32,000 nucleotides of DNA from contig JBMYVL010000002.1 of the NCBI GenBank assembly GCA_049606355.1, forward strand, positions 229,310-261,309. The letters are read 5' to 3'. Below are positions 1,762 to 31,778 of the stretch, piece after piece. A program made the position numbers and the translations under genes. Every line of letters starts with the position of its first letter. Position 1 is the stretch's first letter. Under the pieces are notes generated by a model, which saw only the letters and a program-made list of their open reading frames with translations, had not been told where the DNA came from and did no database searches. The stretch is from Opitutales bacterium (GTDB lineage Bacteria; Verrucomicrobiota; Verrucomicrobiia; Opitutales; Coraliomargaritaceae).

Positions 1762-1762
1762 T

Positions 1763-3226: not shown

Positions 3227-3232
3227 TAAAAA

Positions 3233-4972
3233 CTAACGGACCTCTAAGGACATGCTCGCCTCGACTGGCGGATTCACACCATCTGAAACATTTAAAATGA
3301 ATGTGTTGATACCCCGATCCGACGCGGCAGGAGTGCCACTCAAACGTCCATACTGAGCATTGGTCATCTCCAGCCACTCCGGCCCCGAAACCTTGCTGTA
3401 GGTTAAGCGGTCGTCATCCGCATCTGCGACCCTCCAATTGACATAGCTTTGGTAGGCCTCCCCGACAGTTGCAAAGGGCTGGCGAGTTCCTTTCTGGCTG
3501 AAATTCAGCGAGTTCCATTGCGGCGCAGCATTTTCAACCGCACTCGAGCTATCCAACTCGGTGCCGTCGTCGAACGCTAATTTTTCACGGTGCGTTTGGA
3601 GTAGTTGCGCCATTGCCTCTACAACCTTATGATAGCGAGGATCCGCGACCACATTCACGTCCTCGTGTGGATCCCTGCCATGATCAAACAACATACTGCC
3701 CCCATCGCTCCACTCGCTATACTGAAAATTTGCAGTTCGTACCGTCTCTCCCGCATGGTAGCGCCCGAAAATGGCCTGCTTGTGGACACTCTCAGGGTTC
3801 TTCATGGTCGGCACTAAACTTTTACCCTGCAGGTGCGGGGGCAAATTCAAGCCCGCCAATTCACACAAAGTCGGATAGATGTCCACCATCTCCACCAACG
3901 ACTGCACCCTCTGCCCAGCGGTGTAACCGGGTGCACTAATAATTAACGGTGCATGCATCGAGGTTTTAAACAAGGTGTGCTTACACCACAAGGAGTGATC
4001 TCCTAACTGAAAGCCATGATCCCCCCATAGAATAATGATGGTATCATCTAACATCGATTGGGCCTCTAACTCGTCCAACAGACGACCAATCATCGCGTCG
4101 GTGTAAGAGACGCAAGCTAAATAACCGTGCACCAGCGCTTGGGCCATTGCATCGGAAACAGCACCCTGCTTGGGGACGCCGCCATAACTCCGCAATTCAC
4201 CCCAAGTACTCCGGGCGGCATGCGGTGCATCCTCCGGAAAAAATGTGTAATTATGGGGTAGTTCTATGCTGGCTACATCATAGAGATCCCAGTATTTTTT
4301 CGGCGCGATAAATGGTAAGTGGGGTTTAGAAAAACCGGCCGTTAGGAAAAAGGGGCGGTCGGCGACCTTAGCCTCACGAATCTGCTCTATGATCTTGTCG
4401 GTCATTTGACCTGTCGGATAGGCGCTATCAGGTACGTCGGCCGACTCATACGGTGGGCGCAACTCCTTGTTTTCCGGCTTTGCGTAAGCCCTAAAATAAC
4501 TGGCACGGTCAATCACATCCCACGCTTTGGCATTATCATCCGCATGATGATAGATCTTACCCATCGAAAAGGTCTTATACCCACCCTGCTTAAACCAATC
4601 CGCGATGTCGGGCACATTCGGCGCCCCACTGCAGGTGTTGCGTGCATTGTGTCTACTCACGGTCGCTTGATCAAAACGAGACCCATACCAAGTGAAGCGC
4701 TGGTTCGTTGGGTATAAGCCCGACATTAAACTGGCTCTGGATGCACCACACACCGGAACTTGAACATACGCGTTCTCATACAACGTCCCCATCTCGGCAA
4801 GGCGATTGATACTCGGACTACTCACCCGATCGACGCCATAACAACCCAGCTCAGGACGCAAATCATCCACTGCAATAAAAAGTACATGCGGCGTCTTCTG
4901 GTTCGGACCAGCAGATAAGGTCGTAACAGACAGCAAACCGACTAACAGGGATAATAAACAACGAATCTTCAT
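3233..4972 (-). CDS. Exported sulfatase (iduronate-2-sulfatase-like) with a C-terminal cadherin-like/putative-Ig domain
   Basis: 579 aa. It has a signal peptide (MKIRCLLSLLVGLLSVTTLSAG), the block VLFIAVDDLRPELGCYG and the formylglycine motif VCGASRASLMSGLYP, followed by WGDHGF. The C-terminal ~95 aa (ATVGEAYQSYVNWRVADADDDRLTYSKVSGPEWLEMTNAQYGRLSGTPAASDRGINTFILNVSDG) match the dystroglycan-type cadherin-like / He_PIG consensus. Confidence 0.9.
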   Translation of the reverse strand: MKIRCLLSLLVGLLSVTTLSAGPNQKTPHVLFIAVDDLRPELGCYGVDRVSSPSINRLAEMGTLYENAYVQVPVCGASRASLMSGLYPTNQRFTWYGSRFDQATVSRHNARNTCSGAPNVPDIADWFKQGGYKTFSMGKIYHHADDNAKAWDVIDRASYFRAYAKPENKELRPPYESADVPDSAYPTGQMTDKIIEQIREAKVADRPFFLTAGFSKPHLPFIAPKKYWDLYDVASIELPHNYTFFPEDAPHAARSTWGELRSYGGVPKQGAVSDAMAQALVHGYLACVSYTDAMIGRLLDELEAQSMLDDTIIILWGDHGFQLGDHSLWCKHTLFKTSMHAPLIISAPGYTAGQRVQSLVEMVDIYPTLCELAGLNLPPHLQGKSLVPTMKNPESVHKQAIFGRYHAGETVRTANFQYSEWSDGGSMLFDHGRDPHEDVNVVADPRYHKVVEAMAQLLQTHREKLAFDDGTELDSSSAVENAAPQWNSLNFSQKGTRQPFATVGEAYQSYVNWRVADADDDRLTYSKVSGPEWLEMTNAQYGRLSGTPAASDRGINTFILNVSDGVNPPVEASMSLEVR

Positions 4973-5285
4973 AAGCTAGGGGATAAACGTCAAAAGCGAA
5001 AAATGAACCGCACTGTCCTGCAGCAAAGTGTAAAAGCAAAAAACTAACAGTCCTGTAGCGTAACAGCTTTGCAGCGCACTATAAAGAGGTACTAATGACA
5101 ATTATATGTTGAAAAATGAAACTCCACATTCTTCCATAAAACCCTCAATCATTTAAGGACTCGTCACCACAGATGCTGCACGCTGTGTTAACGCGCAGCA
5201 CTCAACCCCACCGAGCAGGCACAGCGCTACAGGATTGACCGCCCCGTGTGGACTCGTTTTAACCCCTATTAGAACTTTATGACTT

Positions 5286-5651
5286 ATGGACCTTCTCGCC
5301 CCAGTCTTGCAACTCGTCCTCGGTCTTGGCATCTTAAATGTGTGGCTGCTACGCCGCAACCAGCCGACCGCTTATCGTGGCGGTGGCGCGCCCTCATTGA
5401 TTGAAGAGTTTCGCGCCTATGGCCTGCCTGAAAGCGTATTTTATTTAGTGGGAGCACTTAAACTCATCGCTGCTGCCCTGCTACTTCTTGGTCTTTCACT
5501 GCCGGCATTGGTCCGCCCGGGCGCCCTCCTTCTGGCCGGATTAATGGCTGCTGCGCTAGCGATGCACCTTAAAATTAGAGACCCGCTGAGCAAATCACTA
5601 CCGGCAGCCAGCCTGCTCGTGTTGTGCATCGTATTGTTGGCCCTTCGCTAA
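5286..5651 (+). CDS. DoxX-like small integral membrane protein
   Basis: 121 aa with four hydrophobic segments. The motif [30 protein letters not shown] resembles the DoxX-like family signature (F..(L/Y)G.P.......G..(K/E)L.......L). ATG at 5286. Confidence 0.6.
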
Positions 5652-5989
5652 GCACTCGCCAGCTGAAGCGCGAGCAGCGCACACAGTACGAGGTAGAGCG
5701 CGGCAGGAGCACACTGCAGCCAATCATCGCCGATTCGTCGGCGCACGATACATCCACAGGCCATCTGCAGGGACAAGCCTGCCGCCGCGACCGCCCCAAC
5801 CTGCGGATAGGCATAGCCAACCAGTAAGCCCACGGCAGCCAGCAACTGCAGGGCTCCGGTGAGCACCCGAAATTGCGGAATGCCGTAGCGCGCAAACTCC
5901 GCAGTCATCTGCGCACTACGCACGCAGCGAACGCCGTAGACGCAGAAGGAAAGGAAACAAAAGGACTGAAGCCAGTGAAGTGCGCTCAT
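5648..5989 (-). CDS. DoxX-like small integral membrane protein (paralog of 5286..5651)
   Basis: The track ORF 5648..6043 begins at a TTG. The first ATG is at 5989 ([15 protein letters not shown]...), giving 113 aa. It carries the same motif as its neighbour: [29 protein letters not shown]. It is convergent with the plus-strand paralog, and the two stop codons overlap (ctaa at 5648-5651). Confidence 0.55.
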
Positions 5990-6067
5990 GGTGTAAAGTG
6001 CCAGACGATGCCATAGGCATATGCGCGCTTGCTTGCAGCGCAAGTCTGAGCCCGCTTTTAGGACTGC

Positions 6068-7618
6068 TTAATGCGCCGACTCGACGGACTCCGCGGTGGT
6101 TGCGCCTACGACTTCGGCCCGAAAGGGAGTTACCGGCAAACCATTGCGATCAAACAAATTGACCACCGGATTATCGGCCCAGCCATAGCGTAGCATTGTC
6201 GGCTCGGCGATTTCGGGGTGAACGACCCGTACCCGATCCTTCGCGACAATCTCAGCCCTAGCTCGATAAAAGCTCCCGTCTGCACCCGCCAGTTCGAAGC
6301 CCTGCACCTCTGCAACGTCAAAGGCGTACAAGCCCTCAGCACTCACATGCTCAAAGCGTACTTCCACAGCAGCGTCCCGCAGCGTTAAGGTCGCAAAGCG
6401 TGGGCTCTCACAGGCCAGCTCGAAGCCATAGGTCTTGGCTAAAGCGTGTCGTGCCAAACGATCCGCTACCGTACGCTTATTACGGGGATGAATATCGCGC
6501 CCTTCACCACAATCAATAATCACCGCCTGCCCGGAGTTGGCCACACTCAAGCTCTCGGTTTGCGCCTCGCGCAACTCAGCCCACGCGCTGCGTTGTTGTG
6601 AGGCGGAGGGCTCCGCCAGGTAATCCGCCAACTGCACCCAATAAAACGGGAAGTCACCTTGCTGCCACTGCTCGCGCCAGGTTGAAATCAATAAGGGGAA
6701 AAGGTGCGCATAATCGCTGGCACGCGCGACATTACTCTCGCCCTGATACCAGATGACCCCGCGCATGCCATAGCCAATGATCGGATGCAAAACGCCGTTG
6801 TACAAATTCGCTGGGCGCTGCTGCCCATCACGAAAATGGTTTGGCCAGGGCGGTGCTTTGCCGACACGGCCATTGGCGTTCCAGGCACGCCAGTTCGCCA
6901 CTCGTTCCGCATGCATGGCATCGGTATAGTTGGCGGCTTTCACATCCCACTCTTCCAGGTGGCTGTGATAGCGCGGATAGGCTTCTAATACCTCACGAGG
7001 CAACCATGCTTCCGCAGAAGAGCCACCCCAAGCATTGTCGATTAACCCGACCGTAACACCTAAGGCGCGTTGGAGGCGTTGCCCGAAATGATAACCTACC
7101 GCCGAGAAGGAGGCCGCGACCCAACGATTGCTGGACTGCCACTTGCCCTTAAAATCCCACTGCGCCTGCTGCGACCCATAGTGGGGCACACTGAGCATCC
7201 GCAGCTGCGCTGAAGCCGCGCCCGTTACCTCTAAATCACCGCCATCCGACTGCGCGACAGACCATTTCATGTTGGACTGCCCGGAACAGAGCCACACCTC
7301 TCCCACCATGACGTCTTCAAAACGCAGCTTTTGCCGCCCCGCGACCTCCAAGGTATAGGGGCCGCCGGCGGGCATCGGCTTCAATTTAACCTTCCAGCGC
7401 CCATCCAGACCTGCATAGGCCGTGGCCTGCTGCCCATTGATGCGGACCGTAATCCGCTCCCCTGGATCTGCCTGCCCCCAAACTGGGTTGAACTGCTGCC
7501 GTTGCAGCACCATGTGGTCACCGAAAATCGCAGGCAGCTTAATTGCAGCGCTCGTCAGTGTCGTCGAGGCGAGTAAACAGAGGAGCGTTTTGAATGGGGT
7601 CGTTCGCAGGAAGCGCAT
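6068..7618 (-). CDS. Exported carbohydrate O-acetylesterase (sialate O-acetylesterase / SASA, SGNH-type)
   Basis: 516 aa with a signal peptide (MRFLRTTPFKTLLCLLASTTLTSAA). The catalytic block GEVWLCSGQSNM (GQSNM serine motif) and the downstream VIWYQGESN are typical of the SASA family. Confidence 0.8.
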   Translation of the reverse strand: MRFLRTTPFKTLLCLLASTTLTSAAIKLPAIFGDHMVLQRQQFNPVWGQADPGERITVRINGQQATAYAGLDGRWKVKLKPMPAGGPYTLEVAGRQKLRFEDVMVGEVWLCSGQSNMKWSVAQSDGGDLEVTGAASAQLRMLSVPHYGSQQAQWDFKGKWQSSNRWVAASFSAVGYHFGQRLQRALGVTVGLIDNAWGGSSAEAWLPREVLEAYPRYHSHLEEWDVKAANYTDAMHAERVANWRAWNANGRVGKAPPWPNHFRDGQQRPANLYNGVLHPIIGYGMRGVIWYQGESNVARASDYAHLFPLLISTWREQWQQGDFPFYWVQLADYLAEPSASQQRSAWAELREAQTESLSVANSGQAVIIDCGEGRDIHPRNKRTVADRLARHALAKTYGFELACESPRFATLTLRDAAVEVRFEHVSAEGLYAFDVAEVQGFELAGADGSFYRARAEIVAKDRVRVVHPEIAEPTMLRYGWADNPVVNLFDRNGLPVTPFRAEVVGATTAESVESAH

Positions 7619-7814: not shown

Positions 7815-8921
7815 CTAGCTCCTTCCGCGGTACGCACGTGTACCACAGCCATAATGCTTCCGAAAACTATTACTCAAATGCGCAGCATGTGAGAAGCCCG
7901 TCGCTTCGGCAATACGACTTAAATTCCAATCGGTTGCAGTCAACAAAGTCGCAGCCTCACGCAAACGCATACGCATCAATACTTGATGTAAACTCGTTTG
8001 CATAGTCTTGCTGAAGGACTGGTTCAACAAAGTCTTTGAAACCCCCAACATCGCTGCCACTTCAGGCGTTCCTACCTTTTCACTTAAATGCATTTGCAGG
8101 AAGCTCAGCGCTTTACGAACGAGTTCATCCGCGACCGCAAACCCGTCCGTGCTGGCACGCGTGACCACTCCGACTGGCTGTACATACTCAATCGCATCGC
8201 TCGGATCATCAGCGTTCTTCATTAGAGAGTCCAAACGCTTTGCGCCTTGAGCAACGATTTGGTTCGCATTTTTATCGATACTCGAGAGCGGCACCGACTG
8301 CACTTCACAAACCAAGGGGTTATTATCCGTACCAAGGATGGCAAAATCCATTGGCACGTGATAACCCGCATTCTGACACAGATTCGACAACCACCCGGCA
8401 TCGCCATCGTCCATGGCCAAGATGGCACAGGGGCGCTCCAACTGCTGCAGGCGCTGCAACATAAGCTCCGAGCTCTGGCAACCCTTGCCATCCATTCGCT
8501 GCACCTGGTAGCCCCGCTCCGACAAGGCTGATCGATAGCCTGCTAAACGCAAATCGCCATAAGGGGTGCGCGTACTACTGAACCAGGCAAAATTCGTGTG
8601 CTGATAGTGCAACAAATGCTCTGCGGCCAAACGGCCGATGGCTCGGTTGTCGGCTGAAACTCGCGGCAGTTTGAGATCCGTCCGTCCAGTCGAAAGATCC
8701 ACCGCCGGCACGCCCCTAGAGAGGACGTAATCTCCAAGGGCTTTTTCATTTCCGAGTGAACACAGGATTCCCTCCCCACTCCAATTGCGTATCATTCGTT
8801 GGGCCACCAGTAGGTTTGCATCTAAATGCCAATGGTAGCGCTGCGCTGCGGCAACTGCGGCCCGATGTGTCTGCGGATCGTAGGCACTGAGCAAGAGTAA
8901 TACCCGGCGTTGAGTTAACAT
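7815..8921 (-). CDS. XylR-type transcriptional regulator (periplasmic-binding-protein-like sugar sensor domain + AraC-family HTH)
   Basis: 368 aa. The N-terminal LacI/PBP-like fold is indicated by AILAMDDGDAG and FAILGTDNNPLVCEVQSVPLSSID. The C-terminal AraC HTH is indicated by LLNQSFSKTMQTSLHQVLMRMRLREAATLL..TDWNLSRIAEATGFSHAAHLSNSFRKHYGCGTRAYR. It is divergent from uxaC. Confidence 0.85.
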   Translation of the reverse strand: MLTQRRVLLLLSAYDPQTHRAAVAAAQRYHWHLDANLLVAQRMIRNWSGEGILCSLGNEKALGDYVLSRGVPAVDLSTGRTDLKLPRVSADNRAIGRLAAEHLLHYQHTNFAWFSSTRTPYGDLRLAGYRSALSERGYQVQRMDGKGCQSSELMLQRLQQLERPCAILAMDDGDAGWLSNLCQNAGYHVPMDFAILGTDNNPLVCEVQSVPLSSIDKNANQIVAQGAKRLDSLMKNADDPSDAIEYVQPVGVVTRASTDGFAVADELVRKALSFLQMHLSEKVGTPEVAAMLGVSKTLLNQSFSKTMQTSLHQVLMRMRLREAATLLTATDWNLSRIAEATGFSHAAHLSNSFRKHYGCGTRAYRGRS

Positions 8922-9042: not shown

Positions 9043-10452
9043 ATGAGCTTCATTCACGATCATTTTCTACTCAACACCGCAACCGCGAAGACTCTCTACC
9101 ACGACTTTGCCGCAGCGCAGCCAATCATCGATTATCACTGCCACCTGTCACCGGCCGACCTCGCCAGCAACCGTCGCTTTGACAACCTCTTCGATATATG
9201 GCTTGCCGGCGACCACTACAAATGGCGTGCCATGCGCCTGAATGGCGAAGACGAACGCTTCTGCACGGGCGATGCCGACCCGCAGGAAAAATTCATGGCC
9301 TTCGCCAGAGCGCTGCCCAAGGCCTTACGCAACCCACTCTACCACTGGTCGCATCTGGAATTAAAACGCTACTTTGGAATCGATCGCCTGCTCAATGCAA
9401 ACTCGGCCTCGTCTATCTGGGAAGAAGCGAATGCCCAACTACAAAACCCCTCACACAGCGCGTGGGGGATCCTCCAATCGAATCAAGTCGAAGTCATCGG
9501 CACCACCGATGATCCAACCGATCCACTCACGGATCACGTCACGCTCCAACAATCAGATTGCCCCGCACGGGTCCTGCCCAGCTTTCGACCCGATAAGGCA
9601 TTCACCGTGAACGATACCCTCGCTTGGAATGAGTGGGTCGACAAACTGGAGCAGGTCAGCAACTTACCCTGTAATCATTTGAGCAACTTCCTCGCCGCTC
9701 TGGCGCAGCGGATCGAGTTCTTCAATCAACTTGGATGCGTGGCCTCCGACCATGGCATCGAACGCTGCCCACGCATCATTTACACAGAGGCGCAAGCCCG
9801 TGACATCTTTGCGAAGGCACGTGGTGGTAACACCATTTCAGCGGACGATACCGAAGGCTTTACCGGCTTTCTCCTAAGCTGGCTCGGTGAGCGCTATCAT
9901 CAACAAAACTGGGCGATGCAGTTACATCTGGGTGCGATTCGCAACGTCAATGGTGCCCTCTTCCAGCAGCTTGGTGCAGATGTGGGTTGTGACTCGATCC
10001 ACGATGTCGAGCAAGTGGCTGGCATTGCCAAGGTGCTCGGCGAACTATCCGCACGCGAAACGTTGCCCAAGGTCGTGCTGTACAACTTGGACCCGGCAAA
10101 GAATTATGCATTTGCGACCATGTGCGGTAACTTTTTCGAAGCCGGCGTCCGCGGCAAAGTCCAGTTTGGCAGTGGCTGGTGGTTCTTGGATCAACTCGAA
10201 GGCATGACCTTGCAGATTAACGCACTCTCCAACCTCGGTTTATTGAGCAACTTTATCGGCATGCTTACTGATTCGCGCAGCTTCATGAGTTACCCACGTC
10301 ACGAATACTTCCGACGCCTACTCTGCCGCATCCTTGGTCAGGATGTCGAAGATGGGCAAATCCCGAGAGATCTGGATCTACTCGGCAAGCTGGTCGCCGA
10401 CGTGAGCTACCACAATGCCCGTCAATACTTCGGCCTCACGCCTCAAGCGTAA
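9043..10452 (+). CDS. uxaC: Uronate (glucuronate/galacturonate) isomerase
   Basis: 469 aa, collinear with E. coli UxaC as I recall it: [83 protein letters not shown]. Confidence 0.95.
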
Positions 10453-10499: not shown

Positions 10500-11963
10500 A
10501 TGAAGCCTCTCAACCGTCACACCGCTCCAGCCCCGCCGATACAGCCAGAGCGCATTCTACAATTTGGTAAAGGTAACTTTCTGCGCGCATTCGCAGAATG
10601 GACAGTCCAACAGTTAAATGAGTCATCGCTGGAATTCCAGAGTTCCATCGCAATCGTCGAAGCAACCCCACGCGGAGGTGGCGAATTGATCAATCAACAA
10701 GATGGACTATATCATTTGATCCTGGAAGGAATTAAAGAGGGGAAGCCCACACGCACCACTCAGTTGATCGACTGCGTCAACCGTTGTATCAATCCGTACA
10801 AGGAGTATAGCGTATACGAGCAATTAATCGAAAGCCCAGACCTGCGCATCATCATCTCCAATACAACCGAAGCAGGGATTCAATGGGCCGAGGGTGAAAC
10901 ACTGGATATGCGGCCGCCGCCCTCCTTCCCCGGGAAGATGACCGCGCTCCTCTACAAACGATTCAAACAGTTCGGAGGTGCTGCCGATAAAGGACTTATC
11001 ATTCTCTGCTGCGAACTCATCGAGAACAATGGCGACCGCCTGAAAGAGCTCGTGCTCAAGCACGCCAACAACTGGAACCTTGAGGCCGATTTTATCGAAT
11101 GGCTGGAGCAGTGCTGCGCCTTCTGTTCCACACTGGTCGACCGTATCGTTTCAGGTTTTCCGAAGGATCGAATTACTGAGATCCAATCCGAACTCGGCTA
11201 CGAGGATCAACTCGTTGTCGTGGGTGAACACTACCACAACTGGGTCGTCAAAGCACCGGACTGGGTAGCCGCAGAATTCCCGGCCGACAAAGTAGGCCTC
11301 AACGTCAGCTTTGTCGATGCAGCGAAGCAACGTGAAATTCGCGAACAAAAGGTGCGCATCCTCAACGGCTCACACACCGGAACCATGGCAGCAGCTTATC
11401 TCAGCGGCTTCGATACTGTTCGTGAAGCAATGGAGGACCCCTGCATCGGCCAATTCGTCAAAGATATGGTCGCTCAGGAAATCGTCCCCCATATTCCGGG
11501 TGACCCAGACTACCTACAACAGTTTGCCGACACGATCCTTGAACGCTTCTACAACCCCTTCATCCATCACGAGTGGCTCTCCATTTCCCTTAACTCCATG
11601 AGTAAATGGGAGACCCGCGTGCTACCAAGCTTACTCGATGCGTTGAAAAATAACGGCGCCCTTCCGGAACGCATCACGCTATCACTGGCAGCCTTGATCG
11701 CCTTCTATCGAGGCAGACGCGGTGAGGATAGCTACAGTTGTAAGGACAATGCCGACATCCTTGAACTTTTTGGCAAAGTTTGGGGCGACTACGAATCGAA
11801 CACGCTGGAACTGGAATCGCTGGTCCGCACCGTGCTCGCCTACGAGGCGAACTGGAAACGCGACCTCAACCAAATCCCAGGCCTAACGACTGCCGTAACC
11901 CGAAAGCTCGCCAGCATCCTTACCTACGGCATGCGCGAAACCCTAAAAACGGTTCAAGCTTAG
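10500..11963 (+). CDS. uxaB: Altronate oxidoreductase (tagaturonate reductase)
   Basis: 487 aa. It matches recalled E. coli UxaB end to end: MKxLNR...[71 protein letters not shown]...[15 protein letters not shown]. Confidence 0.95.
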
Positions 11964-11976
11964 AGACTTTTCATCG

Positions 11977-14694
11977 ATGACTGAGCAATTCCATGATATC
12001 GCACGCCTGCCAGTCCCTAGCGATAACGCCGCAATCTCGCTCGTCGACCTCAAGGCAGGCACCACGGTTGAGGCAGGCAGCACACGCTTCGACCTCAAGC
12101 ATGACGTGCTGACTGGACATCGCTTCGCAATTACCGCCATCCCCAAAGGCAGCTACATTACATCGTGGGCATATCCGTTCGGCACCGCCTGTAGAGATAT
12201 CGCCAAAGGCGAATACCTCTGCAACGCCAACGTCCTCTACCGCCTCTCGATTCAGGAAGCTGTCCAATTTACTGACCTAAAGCTGCCCGACCAAGCAAAC
12301 TTTGTTGATGATATTGAGCCCTTCAGCTTCGACGAATCTACCTGGAAAAAACCTCCGCCAGTGCGCCTCTATGAAACGCCACGCACCTTTCTCGGTTACA
12401 AACGAAGCAAGCGTGGCGTAGGGACTCGCAACCACTTCGTTATCGTCAACACTTGTGCGACGACAGCACCACTCGTTGAACGCCTTGAAGCAATCTACAA
12501 GGACAAGGCCAGTGCATACAAAAATGTCGATGCCATCATCGGACTGCGCCACACCGAAAACTCCAGCATCCATGCTGAAGAGAATGAGCGCACACTGCGC
12601 ACACTCGCTGGCCTCATCAGTAATGCCAATGTCGGTGGTTTCATTGCCATCGACAGTGGCCTGGAAGGTGACCTGAGTAACAACGATCTGATTCGTTGGA
12701 TGAATGAAAATGGTTTGCCAGTTGATGACATGCCCTACGAATTACTCAGTGCAAGCGATTCCTTTGAGGCCGATGTCGCGACTATCGCTCCGTCAATTGA
12801 CCGGATGCTGGAAAAATTGAACCTCGACCTGCGGAGTGAGCAGTCCATCGCTCACCTTAAAATTGGCTTACAATGCGGCGCATCCGATGCCTTCTCTGGA
12901 ATTTGTGGCAACATTCTTTCCGCCGCGATCGGTCGCGAAGTAATTCGTCACGGCGGCGTAGCTAATTTAACCGAAACGCCTGAACTCTCCGGCGCAGAAG
13001 ACTACATCCTAACTCGCATCACAAGGCCTGAGATCGCCCAAACTTTTCTCAGGATGATGGACCGCTTCAAAACTCACCTAGACTGGCATGGCGGAAGAAT
13101 CGACAAGAATCCATCCGAAGGCAACCTGCTGGGTGGACTTTACAACATTACCCTGAAGTCACTCGGCGCTGCCGTCAAACGGGACCCTCAAATACCTATT
13201 CAAGAGATCATAGAGTATGGCGAACGTATGACACAGCCCGGCTTACACTTTATGGATGGCATGGGGGGCGACATTGCCAGCTACACTGGGCAAGCAGCCT
13301 CCGGGTGTAACATTGTACTCTTCGTTACGGGACGTGGTTCACCGACGAGCTCCTCGATCGTACCGACCATCAAAATTGTCAACACGACCCTGCGCTACAG
13401 GATGATGCAGGGCGATATCGACATTAACGCGGGCGAATATCTTAACGGTAAACCGATGGAGCAGCTTACTGAAGAAGCCCTCCAGCAAGTCATTGACATA
13501 GCCAGCGGCGCACACACGAGCGGCGAGGCACACCAGCAAAACATCGATCTACTCTGGAGGCGCAAATTTTTCCACAACAAGCCTGAAAGCGCCCAAGAGT
13601 TTGCGCCGAGTCGTTTCGATGGCCAACCACAGGCCTGCAGCGCCCCAGAAGGCCCGCCTCTCCAATTAGGCTTTGCGGGGCGTAAGACATCGTGCGGTAT
13701 CGTTCCACACGAAAGAATCGCGCTCTTGATTCCGACTGTCGGTTGCTCACTCGCAACTGCACAGCAGGCAGCTGAGCAGCTCAACCAAAGCCAATGGATC
13801 GAGAGCGGACGAATCTCACGATTTGTGGTGCTCAACAACACCGAAGGCTGCGGCGTGACAACCGGAGCCGAAGTACTCAATTTCCTCATCAGCTACGCTA
13901 CCCACCCACTAGTGGATGCCTGCCTCTTTCTGTCGCTTGGTTGTGAAATGGTTTCGCCCAGCTTTATCAAGTCCACCATGCGTGGTGAAGACATCGGCTT
14001 CCCCGAAATCACCCACGTAACCGAAGCAAAAGGCATTGACCCGGAACAATTCGGCTGGATTACGATTCAAGAGACGGGCGGCACTGAGCACGCCGTAAGC
14101 GCGGTACAAGCCTGGTTCGAAAAACGCCTAAAAAGTAGTCCAATCATCGTACCCGCTGAAGGAACAGCAGCGCACATGCGCATCGGTTTAATGACAAGCC
14201 CGAAGCTGCCGTTCGACGTCATCGCCGCCGCGGCCGAATTCACCCGTCAAGTCGTCGCCAACGGTGGCTCAGTCGTCATTCCTCATGATAGTAGCGCACT
14301 GTTGTCTGCTAAACTCTGCGACTCAGTTCCAGTTAAACCGACCCTCTCATTCGCGCAGGCGATTGACAGGCCGGGCCTTCATTTGATGCAGCGGATCACC
14401 GACAATTCAATAGAGCAAGTAACCGGCCTCGGCGCTACCACAGACCTCATCATCCACATCGGCAAAAACCGCCCTATACCGGCACACACACTGACTCCCA
14501 CACTCAACATCACCGCCTCCGAAATACGTGGCGACTTTGACCAGCAACTCCAGTCGACCAGCAAAGACTACTGGCCGCAACAAATCGCCGATCTCACTCG
14601 CGAAGTCCTGTCCGGTCGTTACCAGCCACGCCAAAATAGTCTGGGGAATACAGGCAATCAGATTCCCCGCGGCACGCGCGCTCATGCGATCTAA
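11977..14694 (+). CDS. uxaA: Altronate-dehydratase-family protein of double length (SAF + two tandem UxaA core modules)
   Basis: 905 aa in one uninterrupted ORF. Residues 1-~525 are a full UxaA. They contain the SAF block [15 protein letters not shown]...AKGEYL, plus [56 protein letters not shown] and [19 protein letters not shown]. Residues ~566-885 repeat the middle and C-terminal domains: [52 protein letters not shown]. The gene starts 13 nt after uxaB. Confidence 0.85.
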
Positions 14695-14900: not shown

Positions 14901-16049
14901 ATGAAGAAGCCCCATTTACCCCAAAAAGCTGAAATTGCCCTGTTCAACAACGGCCTCTATCACCACGGACGGGAGATCGTAATGGGAGCAAAAAATTACC
15001 TTCTCAAACATAGTAATGTGCAGCTACGGGTCCTCCACGACACCAATTACCTTACCTTAGCAGACTCAGCGCTCGCTAGCCCTGACCTCGCTAGCTTCAG
15101 CGCAGCAATCGCTGTCGACACACCGGACGCCTTGATTGAGCAATTGCAGAAAATCACACCTGTCATTGTGAACGCATCGCCGGAATCCGCGATTCAATCA
15201 CTCCCCGCGGTCATCATTGACGATGTCGAGGTTGGACGTATGGCGGCAGAGTACTACATCCGGCGTAGATATAAATCGTTTGCTTACATCGAAAAGGCAG
15301 GCTTGCCCTGGTCCCAAAGGCGCAACGCTGGTTTTGTTGCCAGACTCCATGAAGAAGGTTATCGCCCCATTCAGGTGGATCGAACAGAAGACAGTGAGTG
15401 GCATCGGCCCGTAGCCGACCTGCCAAAGCCACTCGCAGTGTTTGCCCCCAGCGATGGATTAGCACGGATCCTCATTGAACAATTAATCGATCTCAACATT
15501 CACATTCCGCGGGATGTTGCGGTTTTGGGAGTCGATGACGACCCCTACCAGAACTCCCTCTCCCCAGTTCCCTTATCCTCCGTTCAGTTACCCGGCAGCC
15601 GTATCGGAGAAATCGCAGCCGAACAACTTCTTATCTGGATCGAGACGAATAAGCAACCGCAAGCGGTTCGGAAATTGAAACCAGTCAGGGTCATCACACG
15701 ACTTTCAACCGACAATGCCTACTGCGATGATGAACTCGTCGCCGATGCACTTGATATCATCAACGAAGAACTGCCAGGTCTGAAATCCACTGACGATTTG
15801 GTCCAGCGACTCAAAGTATCGCGACGAACCCTTGAATGGCGCTTCCGCAAAGAACTTGGCCACACGATTAACGATGAACTCAGTCACGCTAGAATAGAAA
15901 ATGCGCGCCTGCTACTATCAACCACCGACTTAACCGGTGAACAGATCGCGCAGCGAGTCGGCCTTTCCGAGGGCCGTATGCTGACTCTGCTTCTGAAGCG
16001 TAAGACCGGCCAGACACCGACGGAATACCGCGAAGGCTCGACCGCTTGA
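14901..16049 (+). CDS. XylR-type transcriptional regulator (sugar-binding domain + AraC-family HTH), second copy
   Basis: 382 aa. The PBP/LacI-like portion is indicated by AVFAPSDGLARILIEQL and VAVLGVDDDPYQNSLSPVPLSSVQLP. The C-terminal AraC HTH is indicated by LVQRLKVSRRTLEWRFRKELGHTINDELSHARIENARLLL.TTDLTGEQIAQRVGLSEGRMLTLLLKRKTGQTPTEYR. Confidence 0.85.
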   Translation: MKKPHLPQKAEIALFNNGLYHHGREIVMGAKNYLLKHSNVQLRVLHDTNYLTLADSALASPDLASFSAAIAVDTPDALIEQLQKITPVIVNASPESAIQSLPAVIIDDVEVGRMAAEYYIRRRYKSFAYIEKAGLPWSQRRNAGFVARLHEEGYRPIQVDRTEDSEWHRPVADLPKPLAVFAPSDGLARILIEQLIDLNIHIPRDVAVLGVDDDPYQNSLSPVPLSSVQLPGSRIGEIAAEQLLIWIETNKQPQAVRKLKPVRVITRLSTDNAYCDDELVADALDIINEELPGLKSTDDLVQRLKVSRRTLEWRFRKELGHTINDELSHARIENARLLLSTTDLTGEQIAQRVGLSEGRMLTLLLKRKTGQTPTEYREGSTA

Positions 16050-16331: not shown

Positions 16332-17825
16332 TCAGGCCACAGTTCCTCGGCGTTCCTCCAACAGACGGCGCGTCTCGGTCGCATTTTCCTTTGTGATCGG
16401 ATAGAATTGGAGCAGGAAGAGGGCGATCATATTGGGTATCATGCCACCGAGGACCATTAACAACCGCATCCCCAGGAATGTATCCGCTGTTTGATTACCA
16501 CCTAACTCCGCATCAAATCCAACCAAGACCAGCGCCAATCCTCCGGCAAAGAAACTCAACGAGACCGCGGTCTTGGCGACCCAATTGTACACTGCTCCGA
16601 ACATACCTTCCCGGCGCTCGCCATGTCGGAGTTCATCATTGTCACAAATATCAGCCATCATGGACTGAACAACCGTGCCGACCGCAATCCAATACAGAGA
16701 ACCGAAAATCGCATCGGCAAAGATAAACATATGGTTCCCCGGGGTGTAGACAAACCAACGCACAATGCCGTTAAAGATCACCAAGATATAGACGGTCCGT
16801 AAGGTGAACAATTTGCTGGTTCGCTTGGAAAGCGCCAACATGAGAGGGATCCCAATAAAACCACAAACCGCATACGCTGATGACAACAGGCCCTTCCAGA
16901 CCGAGCCCTGCGCAATGTCACCATCAAACATATAATAGACCAATAAATAGTAATCCATGGAGCTGCTAAACATACCGGCCGCAATTTGCAGCAGGGTCAG
17001 CGCGATAAGGACCAGAAATGCTTTGTTGCCGAATGCTTGACCAACCGTTTTCCAAAAGCCTGCACCGTCCTTCTTGGCGAGGTCCTTTTCCTGAACTTTA
17101 TAGTAACGCTCTTTCGCAAAGATTGCCGGAATGACACCAAAACCAGCGATCATAAGAAAAGCCACGCACCAGAGAACGACTCGTACCCCTTGCACCTGAT
17201 CTGAAAACAGCCCCCAAGTGACACCAAGCGCGGCTGCAGGGATAAACCACTGATACGAAAACTCGCCAACTTTCTGCCAGAAGGTGACATGCCCCATCAC
17301 TTCAGTCCGCTCATCGTAATTGGGCGTCATCTCATAAGTGAGACTGGTGAACGGAACAGCGAAAATGGTAAAGCAGGTATAAAAGATCAACGACGCCACC
17401 AAAAACCAAGCCATCATCGCCCCCTCGTTCCACGAAGTCGGAACCATCCAAATCATCCCAAACGACAGAGCCATGAGAACCGCGCCCAGGAAAATGAAGG
17501 GGCGACGGCGTCCATACTTCGAATGATAGCGGTCCGAAATGCGGCCCATGATCGGATCCGTCAACCCGTCCCAAAAACGAGGAATGGCCAACATGATTCC
17601 AATGAGCGCTGGGTTGACCCCGAGAATCATGTTAAAGAAGGGCATCGCCGTCGCCTTCACCGTCGAATTCCCATGGAAGAAGGTCATCCCCCCAAAACCG
17701 ACCGCGATCTTTTCGCCGAGCCCAATGACGTTACCATTCTTTGGCGCCACTTTTTTGTCCTCAGGGTTTCCCTCGTTGCGGGAGGTGGATGTGGTCTCGA
17801 TTTGGGGTGAAGGAGTTTCGCTCAT
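16332..17825 (-). CDS. MFS transporter, glycoside-pentoside-hexuronide (GPH):cation symporter family
   Basis: 497 aa with about 12 hydrophobic segments. The GPH signature is WDGLTDPIMGRISDRYHSKYGRRRPFIFLGA (D..G...DR.....GRRRP). A hydrophilic N-terminal tail of about 35 aa precedes the first segment. It is the last gene of the long minus-strand cluster. Confidence 0.85.
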   Translation of the reverse strand: MSETPSPQIETTSTSRNEGNPEDKKVAPKNGNVIGLGEKIAVGFGGMTFFHGNSTVKATAMPFFNMILGVNPALIGIMLAIPRFWDGLTDPIMGRISDRYHSKYGRRRPFIFLGAVLMALSFGMIWMVPTSWNEGAMMAWFLVASLIFYTCFTIFAVPFTSLTYEMTPNYDERTEVMGHVTFWQKVGEFSYQWFIPAAALGVTWGLFSDQVQGVRVVLWCVAFLMIAGFGVIPAIFAKERYYKVQEKDLAKKDGAGFWKTVGQAFGNKAFLVLIALTLLQIAAGMFSSSMDYYLLVYYMFDGDIAQGSVWKGLLSSAYAVCGFIGIPLMLALSKRTSKLFTLRTVYILVIFNGIVRWFVYTPGNHMFIFADAIFGSLYWIAVGTVVQSMMADICDNDELRHGERREGMFGAVYNWVAKTAVSLSFFAGGLALVLVGFDAELGGNQTADTFLGMRLLMVLGGMIPNMIALFLLQFYPITKENATETRRLLEERRGTVA

Positions 17826-17936: not shown

Positions 17937-19343
17937 CTAATTTGAAAAATCTTTGCCCCAGTTTGCGTAGAGAGTTTGCTGGAGTTTCTGAATTAGCGGA
18001 GCATTTTCCGGATCGCCTGCGATGTTCACAGACTCGCTCGAGTCCTCGTGGAGATCGTAAAGCATTTGAGCGACAACCGTGTTGCCCTTTTCACTCCATT
18101 CCGTGTAAGCGTAACGTTCGGTAAGCAGGGTCATACCATGCTGCCATTTTGAAATCACGAAGTCTTTGAACGGTTGATCCGGTTTTTCAAGAACGGGTAC
18201 AAAACTCTTACCCTCCAACTGATTTGCAGGATTCTCTAAAGCGCATAGTTCAGTCAGCGTTGGATAGATATCCACAAACTCAACCAATGCTTCAGAAGCG
18301 GCACCTCCGGCAATGCCTGGAGCTTTCACAATAAGCGGGCTGTGTAAGACGACTTCAAAGTTCGAGTGCTTTCCCCACTTTCCGTGATCATCCAGACTGA
18401 AGCCATGATCCCCCAGCAGGACAACGATTGTGTTTTTATCGAGTTCAAGTTCCTTTAATGTATCAAGGACCTTTCCAACCAGTGCATCGGAATAGCTGAC
18501 CGTAGCATAGTATGCGTGAATCAAAGTGCGGGCTAAGTCATCATCTTCAAGCCACCCCTTCTTGGGAATTCCGTGATAGGCTCTCATTTCATTGGACCTG
18601 CGCATGGCTTCAAGCGGCGCATGCTCCGGTGCATGATTGTTTTCAGGGCGCTTAATGGCATCATAGTCATACAGGTCCCAGTATTTCTTGGGGGCATTGA
18701 AAGGTAGATGCGGGGAGGTAAAGCCGACTGCCAGGAAGAAGGGCTTACCATCTCTCTTCAAGCGTTTCAGGGTATTTACAGTTCTTTGCGCGACCGAACC
18801 ATCGTCATAGGCAATGTCCGGAACATCCGCACATTCATACGCCGGACCATGCCCCTTGTTCTCAACATCAAGTTGGATATTTTCCGGTTTCAGATAGTTT
18901 CTCCAGCGGGTTTCATTCGTTTTCGCCCCTTTTCGCACATCCCAACTGTCTTCGGCGTCATTCCACTTATGGAATACCTTCCCGTAGGAAATTGTCGTAT
19001 ACCCGTTATCTTTAAATACCTGAGGCAACACCACAGCATCGGGCGCTTCGGCATCCGCCCCGCTGTTATAACGGTTGAAGCGTGTGAGTGTCGGCCGCAA
19101 ACCGGTCATAATACTCGCACGGGAGGCACCACAAACGGGGACATTGCAATACGCTCGAGTAAAGGTGACACCTTCCGCAGCAAGTTTGTCGATATGTGGT
19201 GAAATGATATGACTCTCCCCAAAGCAGTTTAGCTCAGGGCGTAAATCATCCATCATCAGAAACAAGACGTTTGGCTTGGATTCATCCGACCCAAAGCACA
19301 AACCCGCAATAAACATCACTGAAACAATTAATATTTTCTTCAT
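17937..19343 (-). CDS. Exported sulfatase (iduronate-2-sulfatase-like)
   Basis: 468 aa. It has the signal MKKILIVSVMFIAGLCFG, the block VLFLMMDDLRPELNCFG, the formylglycine motif VCGASRASIMTGLRP, and LGDHGF. Confidence 0.9.
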   Translation of the reverse strand: MKKILIVSVMFIAGLCFGSDESKPNVLFLMMDDLRPELNCFGESHIISPHIDKLAAEGVTFTRAYCNVPVCGASRASIMTGLRPTLTRFNRYNSGADAEAPDAVVLPQVFKDNGYTTISYGKVFHKWNDAEDSWDVRKGAKTNETRWRNYLKPENIQLDVENKGHGPAYECADVPDIAYDDGSVAQRTVNTLKRLKRDGKPFFLAVGFTSPHLPFNAPKKYWDLYDYDAIKRPENNHAPEHAPLEAMRRSNEMRAYHGIPKKGWLEDDDLARTLIHAYYATVSYSDALVGKVLDTLKELELDKNTIVVLLGDHGFSLDDHGKWGKHSNFEVVLHSPLIVKAPGIAGGAASEALVEFVDIYPTLTELCALENPANQLEGKSFVPVLEKPDQPFKDFVISKWQHGMTLLTERYAYTEWSEKGNTVVAQMLYDLHEDSSESVNIAGDPENAPLIQKLQQTLYANWGKDFSN

Positions 19344-19430
19344 TATAATTATACTTTTCGACTTTATTTAAACTAATTCTATTTTTTTTGATTCCGCTGC
19401 AGCTCACCGAGCCTCACGTGCTTGCTACTT

Positions 19431-20846
19431 TTATTTCTGGTTCTTCTTAAATTTTTTGGTGTGTTCCAGGCCTAAATAAGCGGGCTCAATCAGACCTTTG
19501 CTCCACGCAGCACGCACACTGTCAATCTCCTTAAAGCGCTCCGGCAATGCCTTGATGATATTATTTTTCTCACTGATATCATCTTTTAAATTAAACATCT
19601 GACGCCCCGTTCCACCGTTATAGGTAATAATCTTATAGTCTCCCATACGCACGGCATATCTACCTTGTGAGCCACCATCACGAAAGAAAATAGCCCTGTG
19701 CGGCGGCCCTTGCTTTGCTCCGGTCAGGTAAGGGATTAGATTCACCCCGTCGAGTGGTTGCTCGGGGTTTAAAGGTGCACCAGATAGATCCGCTATGGTC
19801 GCCAGCACATCCAATGAATTGACTGGATAGTCATACACCGAAGGACGGGTCACCCCTTTCCATTGCATCAGAAACGGCACGCGCCATCCGCCTTCTAAAG
19901 CAGAGCCTTTGCCCCTTCGAAGGACCCCGTTATTCGCACCCCATTTCAGTTTGCCACCATTGTCGGACATGAAAAATACGAGCGTGTTTTCCTCCAGGCC
20001 GGATTCACGAAGCTTATTCATAATCCGCCCCACACCGTCATCCAAGCCGACCACTAGCCCTGCGTATAGCTGCCGGGTTTCGTCTTGTATGTGTGCGACA
20101 CGCTCCAAGTGTCCATCCGCTGGCTGCAATGGAGTATGCGGCGCGTTATACGACATAAACAGGAAAAAGGGCTTATCTTGATGGCGTTCGATAAAATCCA
20201 ACGCCTCATCGGTTAGCGCCTCCGTCAAATGCTTTTCAAAAGCGACTGGTGTATGATCATCCAGAATGAAGGTTCTCATCTGCTGAATCTCTTCCCGGCC
20301 CTCAGTGAGATTGTAGGAGTCTTCAAATTTCATATCCTTCTGGAAATAAAAATGACTCCCGCCTAAGTGGCCATAGAACTCATCGAACCCGCGATTCAGT
20401 GGATGATGCGTCTCCTTGTGCGCGCCAAGATGCCATTTACCAATGATCTTCGACGTATAGCCCACTGGCTTCAGGACTTCAGCAATGGTTTGTTCGCTCT
20501 TTGGCACCCCCATATTGGGATCATTAGGGCGGTACTGCGGATTGCGCTCAGAGCCAAAGCGCTGTTGATAGCGCCCTGTGATAAACCCGGCACGGCTGGG
20601 TCCACAGACTGCATGCGCCGCATACCCACTGGTAAACTGCACGGCACTGCTTGCGAGAGCATCGATATGGGGAGTCGGAATATCCGTGCAGCCGTTATAG
20701 CCGACATCACCATAGCCCAGATCATCCGCCATGATAACGATCAGGTTTGGCTTTTCTTGTGCAGTATCCGCTTGAGCCACCGGCAGCAGAAGCAGAACGG
20801 CGGCGAGCAATTGGATGATATTGATTGTGGGTTTCAGTGGAGTCAT
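19431..20846 (-). CDS. Exported arylsulfatase (arylsulfatase A/B-like)
   Basis: 471 aa. It has the signal MTPLKPTINIIQLLAAVLLLLPVAQA, the block LIVIMADDLGYGDVGYNG, the formylglycine motif VCGPSRAGFITGRYQQR, GKWHLG, and FMSDNGG. Confidence 0.9.
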   Translation of the reverse strand: MTPLKPTINIIQLLAAVLLLLPVAQADTAQEKPNLIVIMADDLGYGDVGYNGCTDIPTPHIDALASSAVQFTSGYAAHAVCGPSRAGFITGRYQQRFGSERNPQYRPNDPNMGVPKSEQTIAEVLKPVGYTSKIIGKWHLGAHKETHHPLNRGFDEFYGHLGGSHFYFQKDMKFEDSYNLTEGREEIQQMRTFILDDHTPVAFEKHLTEALTDEALDFIERHQDKPFFLFMSYNAPHTPLQPADGHLERVAHIQDETRQLYAGLVVGLDDGVGRIMNKLRESGLEENTLVFFMSDNGGKLKWGANNGVLRRGKGSALEGGWRVPFLMQWKGVTRPSVYDYPVNSLDVLATIADLSGAPLNPEQPLDGVNLIPYLTGAKQGPPHRAIFFRDGGSQGRYAVRMGDYKIITYNGGTGRQMFNLKDDISEKNNIIKALPERFKEIDSVRAAWSKGLIEPAYLGLEHTKKFKKNQK

Positions 20847-20876
20847 AGAATTGATAAATCTATGCAGGCTGTAGCT

Positions 20877-22040
20877 CTATTTGCTCAATAGGATGTCGAT
20901 GAGCTCATGATCGATTGTTTTGCTTTCATCATCTGCGATTTTAAAATGGCCTTTGTAGTCCCAGACCGCTTGCGCGATTCCAAGTTTTTCAAAGGCTTTG
21001 ATCCAGTCGCGGTAATAGGCGAGGCGAAGTTCGCGAGGTGCAAACACGATACAACCCCATTCGCCACAATAGACGGGAAGATCATGTTTTTCTGAAAAAT
21101 CGACTGCGATCTGTAAGCGCTCGAGAATTTTTTCATAATCAAACGCGCCATTCACCCTTTTAAGGTAGTCTTTTGTTGCCGGTGTGTACTGATCTCCGAG
21201 TTCGTCTATGAACGAATCCTCCCCAAGAGGTTTCCCCGGATACTGAATCGGTCCATCATAATCTTTTAACCGTGACCAACTCGCTTTGTAGTGGGTTAGA
21301 GGCATCGGTTCGTAATTGTGGAAACTGATGATGAGGTTTTTATCATTATCAGGAACCCACAGCTGTTCCAGTGTGTCGAGCGTTTGCCACCGGTTCGAAC
21401 CGATCACAAAGGTGCGTTTGGGTTCTTTTTCGCGCATGAATGCATAGACTTTTTTAATTAGCTGGTTCCAATCATCCGGATCATCGGCAACCGCTTCATT
21501 CATAAATTCGTAGGCAACGCTGCTCACGCAATTACCACCAATACGGTCTGATATCTCGCCCCAAAGAGCGATGAACTTCTTCTGCTCTTCCGGGTCTTCC
21601 CAAAGCGTATTCGCATGGCCATTACCTTGATTGACGGCATTGAAGTAGTGAGAACGGATAATGTGCAGATCGACAATGATTCGAAGATCGTTTCTGCCAG
21701 CCCAGGTAATGGCCTTGTCCAAATAGTCCCAGGCATCCTCAAGTGGCTTACCTGCTTCATCCCAGAACTCTTTCTCATCGATCGGAAGCCGGATATGGTC
21801 GAAACCTTGCGCTTTCAGCATGATAAAATCATACTCAGTGATGTAGCTCGCCATTAGCTCACGGGGTCGTTCATCACGTTGCGACAACCAATGGCTTAGA
21901 TTAACGCCGCGCTTAATTTCGAATTTATTCTTGCAGCAAGCTGCTCCCGCGATGGCAACATGCGGTAAGCCAACAGCCATTGCCAGGAGGACGGTGATGC
22001 GGGCTAGTAATTTTCTCATCTGTTGAATTCGTTGTATCAT
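20877..22040 (-). CDS. Exported glycoside hydrolase family 5 (cellulase superfamily)
   Basis: 387 aa. An alternative start at 22019, MRKLLARITVLLAMAV..., gives a cleaner signal peptide. GH5 blocks are RGVNLSHWL, FDHIRLPI, VDLH, AYEFMNEA (acid/base E), SFHNYEP and VYCGEWG (nucleophile E). Confidence 0.85.
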   Translation of the reverse strand: MIQRIQQMRKLLARITVLLAMAVGLPHVAIAGAACCKNKFEIKRGVNLSHWLSQRDERPRELMASYITEYDFIMLKAQGFDHIRLPIDEKEFWDEAGKPLEDAWDYLDKAITWAGRNDLRIIVDLHIIRSHYFNAVNQGNGHANTLWEDPEEQKKFIALWGEISDRIGGNCVSSVAYEFMNEAVADDPDDWNQLIKKVYAFMREKEPKRTFVIGSNRWQTLDTLEQLWVPDNDKNLIISFHNYEPMPLTHYKASWSRLKDYDGPIQYPGKPLGEDSFIDELGDQYTPATKDYLKRVNGAFDYEKILERLQIAVDFSEKHDLPVYCGEWGCIVFAPRELRLAYYRDWIKAFEKLGIAQAVWDYKGHFKIADDESKTIDHELIDILLSK

Positions 22041-22064
22041 TGTCAGTATTGAAGCAGAATCATT

Positions 22065-23540: not shown

Positions 23541-23577
23541 TACAAACTCAGCTTTATGTTCATTCCCTGATTCATGC

Positions 23578-31408: not shown

Positions 31409-31778
31409 AAAATTAAGCCCCTCAGCTAGATTCACTGAATCGAATGTACTGCCCTTTCCGAACCATCCCCAGCCGTAGCATCGGCGGATGCCTTAGCGGT
31501 TGAAACTGGCGTTCGTTTCCGCACCGATGGACGGAGCGCAGCACTTGCAAAAAAGCGTACACAAGTTGTACATCCGGCAGACAAAACAATCATGGGGCGC
31601 AGTGACATAAAAATAGGTAAAATTGGACGGGATAGAGAGAGTTTACGGCATGGCAGCCAAACACAGAGCCCCATCAATAATACCGAAGCATGCTCCAAAA
31701 AAACAGACAACCAACGACGCACATGCATCAAAATTGCGCAGCACATGCGACACTAGCGCACACAAATGCCGAGTTTGA

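Follow-up and report, generated by a model that had tools for sequence, protein, structure and literature searches.

A double-length UxaA-family protein in which the conserved cysteines of the sugar-acid dehydratases are divided between two modules

The dehydratases of the UxaA/GarD family are central to the catabolism of hexuronates, aldarates and rare sugars, and both their metal centre and the geometry of their active site are ill defined, with one crystal structure (containing Ca2+) and one proposal based on electron paramagnetic resonance (EPR) to go by. Members of the superfamily (COG2721; SAF + PF04295 + PF20629) are three-domain chains of about 500 amino acids (aa). The contig JBMYVL010000002.1 of an Opitutales bacterium (assembly GCA_049606355.1) contains a gene of this family that encodes 905 aa and five domains. 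It lies in the stretch of 32,000 nucleotides (nt) analysed here, positions 229,310 to 261,309 of the forward strand, which is called the window below. The question raised by this locus is how such a chain builds its active site, and whether it has one site or two. An earlier note, made from the letters of the window alone, had proposed that a homodimeric enzyme was fused into one chain with a single composite site. It was found that the protein is a genuine, ancient and conserved fusion, in which a UxaA/GarD-family sugar-acid dehydratase is followed by a repeat of its own second and C domains, and that the four cysteines conserved in the family are each kept only once, three in one module and one in the other. 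The reading that fits these data best, and which we consider rather probable, is a pseudo-heterodimer in a single chain, in which one composite site is live and the other site dead.

The domains of the protein and the codons of the four cysteines are located as follows, D2a and Ca being the second and C domains of module 1, and D2b and Cb those of module 2.

11977..14694, + strand: long UxaA-family open reading frame (ORF), 905 aa plus stop; homologs span 100% of its length
11977..12276, + strand: SAF / beta-clip N-terminal domain, aa 1-100 (Pfam SAF, PDB 3k3s, Foldseek)
12382..12831, + strand: D2a, second domain of module 1, aa 136-285 (PF04295 at aa 140-282; alignment with E. coli UxaA/GarD; census)
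12832..13566, + strand: Ca, C-terminal catalytic domain of module 1, aa 286-530 (PF20629, E 1.8e-78)
12874..12876, + strand: Cys300 codon, the family's fourth cysteine and the sole one left in module 1 (Cys in 228/228 long forms)
12994..13191, + strand: lid segment of Ca, aa ~340-405, including NPSxGN..GLYNI.LKS.GAA (hhalign gap; MAFFT alignment)
13567..13671, + strand: inter-module linker of 35 aa (aa 531-565) with a P.G.P motif (conservation; AlphaFold2 (AF2) predicted local distance difference test (pLDDT) 63-80)
13672..14151, + strand: D2b, second domain of module 2, aa 566-725 (PF04295, E 1.7e-14)
13744..13746, + strand: Cys590 codon, family Cys1 (Cys in 228/228)
13849..13851, + strand: Cys625 codon, family Cys2 (Cys in 228/228)
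13942..13944, + strand: Cys656 codon, family Cys3 (Cys in 228/228)
14152..14691, + strand: Cb, degenerate C domain of module 2, aa 726-905 (hhalign; AF2 model and Foldseek match to 6u7l)

Division of the family motifs between the modules

According to Watanabe 2019 (PMC6336799), exactly four cysteines are conserved throughout the superfamily, of which the second domain holds three and the CGGSD motif the fourth, and they were proposed as the ligands of one iron. E. coli K-12 UxaA (495 aa) and GarD (523 aa) served as references and were aligned with both modules of eight long forms, and the residues were counted in a census set of 228 unique long forms of 840-1000 aa. The comparison gave the following distribution of the motifs.

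G.VG.RN: kept in module 1 (RGVGTRN), lost in module 2
Cys1, PTVGC/TSVHC: lost in module 1, kept in module 2 (PTVGC590)
Cys2, HxYGC: His kept and Cys lost in module 1, kept in module 2 (TEGC625)
Cys3, GLGCE: lost in module 1, kept in module 2 (LGC656E)
Cys4, (E/Q)CGGSD: kept in module 1 (C300), lost in module 2
NPSPGNKxGG: kept in module 1, deleted in module 2
TGRGTP: kept in module 1, lost in module 2

The census confirmed that this reciprocal three-plus-one split is a trait of the whole long-form family. The residues C300, C590, C625 and C656 are each Cys in 228/228 long forms, and they are the only invariant cysteines of the long-form protein. The module 1 equivalents of Cys1-3 are never Cys; they are variable, and no new ligand has taken their place. 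At the module 2 equivalent of Cys4 there is never a Cys but Ser, Ala, Thr or some other residue. The NPSxGN and TGxG motifs, too, are confined to module 1 in 228/228 long forms. The complete set of four, expected inside one D2-C unit, is therefore present only across both modules. In the query, D2a retains RGVGTRN and H192-T193-E194 with all three family cysteines gone, Ca bears QC300GASD, the NPSEGN lid and TGRGSP, and D2b bears PTVGC590, NTEGC625 and SLGC656E. The lineage-specific cysteine C160 (window 12454-12456) stands one residue before the lost Cys1 of module 1 and occurs only in the query and one other sequence (2/228); as its position does not correspond to Cys1, none of the three second-domain cysteines is left in module 1. 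The earlier note had recognised the reciprocal loss, and in this it agrees with the whole census, but it counted two lost Cys motifs in module 1 where three are lost. The motif positions it gave were correct (CGASD around 12868-12891, TGRGSP 13327-13344, PTVGC 13732-13746, NTEGCG 13837-13854, SLGCE 13933-13947).

Conservation over the family is highest in Ca, with a mean pairwise identity of 0.64 and 57 invariant columns, and lowest among the domains in Cb (0.39, 7 columns), with D2a (0.47, 15 columns) and D2b (0.45, 14 columns) between them; the linker shows an identity of 0.23 and 0 invariant columns. Cb has no Cys4, lid or TGRG and is still constrained. From the figures for D2b and Cb it follows that module 2 is under clear purifying selection and is no decaying remnant.

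The second module as a copy of the first

The reading frame is open over the whole of 11977..14694 (+), with 905 codons and zero internal stops in the translation, which agrees with the uninterrupted double-length UxaA described in the earlier note. Pfam returned PF04295 (GD_AH_second) at aa 140-282 with 131.8 bits and PF20629 (GD_AH_C) at aa 292-529 with 263.6 bits, both far over the cutoffs, so the order of a second domain followed by a C domain is that of the superfamily. A further GD_AH_second match was found at aa ~583-718 (E 1.7e-14 with aa 526-905 scanned alone), and Pfam gave no second GD_AH_C match on the query protein. SAF remained below the Pfam threshold (aa 16-81, 15.6 bits against a cutoff of 21, E 0.02); the N-domain belongs to the SAF / beta-clip group by its match to the UxaA N-domain of PDB 3k3s (E 9e-11) and by a Foldseek template modelling (TM) score of 0.82.

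The relation between the modules became clear on profile-profile comparison, with hhalign profiles built from a 62-sequence family alignment. Module 2 (aa 564-898) aligns to module 1 (aa 136-528) with 99.6% probability and E 9e-24 over 318 columns, and direct BLASTP of half against half is weak (E 9e-5 and 0.002). One gap of ~60 aa in module 2 removes the NPSxGN..GLYNI.LKS.GAA lid segment, for which no counterpart in module 2 was found by hhalign or MAFFT. Since the alignment covers both domains with this single gap, module 2 repeats the second domain and the C domain as a whole and is without SAF and the lid. The tandem duplication and the absence of SAF from module 2, both put forward in the earlier note, are borne out by this alignment, and the duplication also by the match of the module 2 model to GarD described below. 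Of the domain counts that the note had predicted, two GD_AH_second matches and one SAF (sub-threshold) were obtained, and the second GD_AH_C went unseen by Pfam.

Modelled alone with AF2, module 2 reached a pLDDT of 91.7 and a predicted TM score (pTM) of 0.92, and the sole significant PDB match of the model was GarD 6u7l (E 5e-15, query-normalised TM 0.66). The runners-up after GarD in Foldseek were Ni,Fe-CO dehydrogenases, in which a metal cluster is held by two Rossmann-like domains, with very low TM scores (0.11-0.23); this is probably only a generic resemblance between proteins with two Rossmann domains. The full-length model had a pLDDT of 90.3 and a pTM of 0.91, from which the protein is confidently predicted to be one compact, fixed body, and it matched 6u7l via module 1 (target-normalised TM 0.84, Foldseek). 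Its least confident internal loops are aa 371-380 in the NPS lid and aa 621-630 around Cys625. The mean values of these blocks were 64 (NPS lid, window 13087-13116) and 57 (Cys625 loop, window 13837-13866), and the confidence of the Cys625 loop rose to 74-80 when module 2 was modelled alone.

GarD of E. coli (PDB 6u7l), the one family member with a full-length structure, aligns with module 1 over aa 16-513 (E 6e-44; TM 0.84). It shares with module 1 the order of SAF, second and C domains and the motifs, and its fold is also the only one matched by module 2. It differs in its length of 523 aa and in having the four cysteines in one chain, and the query falls far below the cutoff of the GarD equivalog (206 bits against 730) and is not GarD. 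E. coli UxaA (b3091, 495 aa), the D-altronate dehydratase, belongs to the same family and shares PTVGC, HxYGC, GLGCE, CGGSD, NPSPGN and TGRGTP; it is a single module, whereas the query is 410 aa longer and spreads these motifs over two. The D-arabinonate dehydratase C785_RS13685 of Watanabe 2019 is likewise a single-module enzyme and needs Fe2+ and dithiothreitol (DTT) (PMC6336799). The sulfolactate sulfo-lyase SuyAB and the two-gene L-fuconate dehydratase, treated in the same text, indicate that the parts of the family can be spread over more than one polypeptide. In these heteromeric members the split separates SAF from the rest and no D2-C unit is duplicated, and SuyB is without the conserved cysteines (PMC6336799); in the query SAF is fused at the N-terminus and is not a separate small subunit.

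A proposed composite site and its alternatives

If the active site lay within one D2-C unit, the silencing of one copy should spare one module and let the other degenerate. The pattern found is a mosaic: D2a kept RGVGTRN and lost the cysteines, and D2b did the opposite. Such a reciprocal pattern is expected if a C domain forms the site together with the Cys loops of the partner unit and one of two symmetric sites is kept, and the mosaic fits one live site. The live site would consist of Ca (Cys300, the NPSxGN lid and TGxG) and the RGVGTRN of D2a, and would be completed by the three-cysteine loops of D2b (Cys590, Cys625, Cys656). The retention of G.VG.RN in D2a and its loss from D2b fit a contribution of D2a in cis to the live site. 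Together Ca and D2b would restore the four-cysteine iron centre that canonical members hold in one D2-C unit. The symmetry-related dead site, made of D2a and Cb, would have lost its cysteines, lid and catalytic motifs and would persist as a scaffold. In this arrangement we infer that the four cysteines converge at one site and that the long form depends on iron.

Covariation was analysed with our own mean-field direct coupling analysis (DCA) of the 228 sequences (effective number, Meff, 175), in which the individual top couplings are mostly noise and only aggregate tests are informative. With the full alphabet, the pairs between the catalytic loops of Ca and the Cys loops of D2b were enriched over random D2b windows: the observed mean was reached by a fraction of 0.002 of the nulls, the observed upper tail by 0.000 and the value of the top 10 pairs by 0.039; no enrichment was seen between the Ca catalytic loops and the D2a loops. 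The pseudo-symmetric trans maps (D2a-Cb against D2b-Ca in the hhalign register) correlated with r = 0.113 and z = 5.0, a value reached by 0/1000 nulls, and the cis maps at z = 1.5 only. A reduced alphabet left the direction unchanged. The top cross-module pairs include T392-T629, L525-V627, I508-F616 and A316-S662. Covariation thus favours, weakly but reproducibly, a cross-module pairing of the D2b Cys loops with the Ca catalytic loops.

It is the three-plus-one cysteine split, the confident single-body AF2 model and the weak cross-module covariation that make the composite site the best-fitting reading, and to this extent the fused dimer of the earlier note is partly supported. Several points weigh against it. 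The covariation signal is weak, and the division of the family into two deep clades, a phylogenetic confound, could have inflated it. Each of the two modules superposes as a D2+C unit on a GarD chain, so that a composite site requires the canonical enzyme to build its site across the dimer too. The substrate specificity of the distant clade of long forms may differ, since uxaB and uxaC are not neighbours there, and LguB, an assayed altronate dehydratase of Verrucomicrobiota considered below, does not have the termini of the long form. What kind of metal centre the family has is also still under debate.

GarD reportedly homodimerises through its second domain. Eukaryotic phosphofructokinase is a duplicated-and-fused enzyme with one degenerate half, and aspartate transcarbamoylase is a shared-active-site oligomer, as shown by hybrid complementation. 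The first resembles the long form in that duplication and fusion were followed by loss of catalysis in one half, and the second in that reciprocal defects complement only with a site shared between protomers; folds and chemistry are unrelated in both, and the likeness is conceptual only.

The superposition of each module on GarD as an intact D2+C unit, by which the clefts in cis may be preserved, is also the starting point of another explanation, in which module 1 is a dehydratase that is self-sufficient without the three second-domain cysteines and module 2 is a non-catalytic appendage, either a structural pseudo-subunit or a regulatory module binding a metal, an Fe-S cluster or a ligand at its own three-Cys site. 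The invariant H192-T193-E194 of D2a could then provide non-Cys ligands, and the confident folding of module 2 by itself in AF2 and the position of Cb as the least conserved domain are in keeping with an appendage. What this explanation does not account for is that precisely the four canonical cysteines survive, one copy of each, without variation in 228/228 sequences, and that the D2a equivalents of Cys1-3 are variable and have not been swapped for new ligands; moreover, the covariation ties the Cys loops of D2b to the catalytic loops of Ca and not to Cb. We regard it as the main rival, though an unlikely one. That each module has a catalytic site of its own, for different substrates or steps, would agree with the purifying selection on both modules and with the heterogeneous gene neighbourhoods in other phyla. 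Such a bifunctional protein is nevertheless very improbable, as module 2 is without the lid, CGGSD and TGRG, which are found unchanged in the catalytic C domains of the family without exception, and Cb has only 7 invariant columns.

The possibility that two adjacent genes were joined by a sequencing or assembly error, or that the fusion is a recent accident of one lineage, might draw on a 24-kb metagenome contig (L084) that carries the modules as separate ORFs. It is negligible, being refuted by colinear forms of ~900 aa in at least 80 species genomes that span about a dozen phyla, as well as in hundreds of clusters from metagenomes, and by a 98% identical copy of the query on an independent contig (P0001). 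On L084, positions 4320-6984 contain a 541-aa module 1 gene, 55 nt, and then a 327-aa module 2 gene that starts with GTG and is preceded by GAGGGG, which resembles a Shine-Dalgarno sequence; the linker motif LLPGKPVMFK can still be read and is terminated by two in-frame TAA codons. The arrangement has the look of a secondary split that produced a true heterodimer, with the caveat that the coverage of the contig is only 2.69x, and such a fission implies that module 2 is able to work as a subunit of its own. Among the candidates for a stand-alone module 2, it alone looks like a real fission. Most of the other short matches were contig-edge fragments bearing the tail of module 1, P0195 was an artefact of an N-run gap, and L083 was too short for a verdict.

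Distribution, operon context and meaning

Full-length homologs of ~900 aa are plentiful. Those with 51-69% identity are from Verrucomicrobiota (Coraliomargarita akajimensis, Pelagicoccus, Luteolibacter, Haloferula), and those with 33-40% from many other groups. A scan with one genome per species gave at least 80 colinear loci in Verrucomicrobiota, Chloroflexota, Latescibacterota, Poribacteria, Actinomycetota (Rubrobacter, Kribbella), Bacillota (Paenibacillus, Aquibacillus, Alicyclobacillus), Deinococcota, Gemmatimonadota, Acidobacteriota, Planctomycetota, Pseudomonadota and one metagenome-assembled genome (MAG) of Bacteroidota. Module 2 alone was matched by 368 clusters (50% identity) at E<=1e-3 and by 214 at E<=1e-10. 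The entries of the long form that carry a name are all called "UxaA family hydrolase" or "altronate dehydratase". A literature search on the UxaA family and on altronate dehydratase/iron-sulfur yielded no paper that describes the long form. In the available text on the UxaA/GarD tree of Watanabe 2019 (PMC6336799), which has nine subfamilies, the members described are single-module or SAF-split only, and a double-length subfamily is not mentioned. The double-length architecture is therefore widespread, in about a dozen phyla, yet apparently undescribed. The earlier note did not know of a description and suggested a search for orthologs of ~900 aa. Full-length homologs with 35-69% identity are present in at least 80 species-level genomes, which speaks against an artefact; contrary to what the note implied, the architecture is not rare.

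In the window the gene is the third and last of a uxaC-uxaB-uxaA operon, its ATG lying 13 nt beyond the uxaB stop on the same strand. The neighbouring genes are the following.

9043..10452, + strand: uxaC, glucuronate/galacturonate isomerase, first gene of the operon (PF02614, E 1e-191; NF002794, 562 bits, cutoff 387)
10500..11963, + strand: uxaB, tagaturonate reductase (NF002969, 623.6 bits, cutoff 359)
7815..8921, - strand: divergent regulator with a sugar-binding periplasmic-binding-protein-like (PBP-like) domain and an AraC-type helix-turn-helix (HTH) (domain search)
14901..16049, + strand: PBP-like + AraC-type regulator downstream of the operon (domain search)
16332..17825, - strand: GPH-family (MFS_2) glycoside/hexuronide:cation symporter (domain search)

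The gene is co-located with uxaC and uxaB, as a D-altronate dehydratase would be, and the context resembles that of E. coli, where uxaC adjoins uxaA. NCBIfam returned the GarD model alone and below its cutoff (TIGR03248, 206.5 bits against 730.85), with no UxaA equivalog listed. From the operon, the nearby GH28 also being counted, the long UxaA is here most likely a D-altronate dehydratase, converting D-altronate to 2-keto-3-deoxygluconate in galacturonate catabolism. The only Verrucomicrobial altronate dehydratase that has been assayed is LguB of Luteolibacter LG18, which is active with Fe2+ and DTT (PMC12632266). It was considered as a long form and rejected, since its primer-derived termini (MKRLVQV... 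and ...GNRV) match no long form; LguB is probably canonical and hence lends the long form no biochemical support. In the distant clade, uxaB adjoins the long uxaA in 3/80 of the loci listed, and the neighbours are heterogeneous, with SDR, GFO/IDH/MocA, MR/MLE enolase-superfamily and aldehyde dehydrogenase genes. The rarity of adjacent uxaB/uxaC and the recurrence of these other neighbours suggest that the long forms of this clade act on other sugar acids.

Regarding the rest of the window, the regulators at 7815-8921 (-) and 14901-16049 (+) are paralogous and bracket the uxaCBA operon. The surroundings (window 289-4972 and 17937-25224) are a sulfatase-rich region for polysaccharide utilisation, with seven sulfatases, GH10, GH5, GH94, GH28 and a SASA-type esterase, a combination typical of marine Verrucomicrobiota. 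The 808-aa ORF at window 29009-31435 (-) starts with GTG and has as its sole Pfam match a pectate-lyase-like beta-helix at aa 56-290, the other ~500 aa being unannotated. Two convergent small ORFs of 121 and 131 aa (window 5286-5651, +, and 5648-6043, -) have a hydrophobic, membrane-like look, and the pair at 5286-6043 fills the only stretch free of large genes in that part of the window. Scans for Rfam families and for promoters and terminators gave nothing relevant.

The long form offers a useful case of duplication, fusion and reciprocal degeneration, and hundreds of entries named "UxaA family hydrolase" represent a distinct architecture, probably with diverse substrates outside Verrucomicrobiota. 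As the three-plus-one split occurs in a large cross-phylum subfamily, it makes a direct prediction on how the site is built. It is tempting to speculate, with the arguments for and against in our view evenly balanced, that the long form is a natural complementation experiment, in which the iron-cysteine site of the whole UxaA/GarD family is seen to be assembled in trans. If this is true, the second-domain Cys loops of one protomer complete the catalytic C domain of its partner, the canonical homodimers contain two shared sites, and the fused lineage kept one of these and silenced the other. The architecture of the debated metal centre would then be defined, and the family would provide a clean, phylum-spanning case of a single chain that forms a pseudo-heterodimer, one of its sites being live and the other dead.

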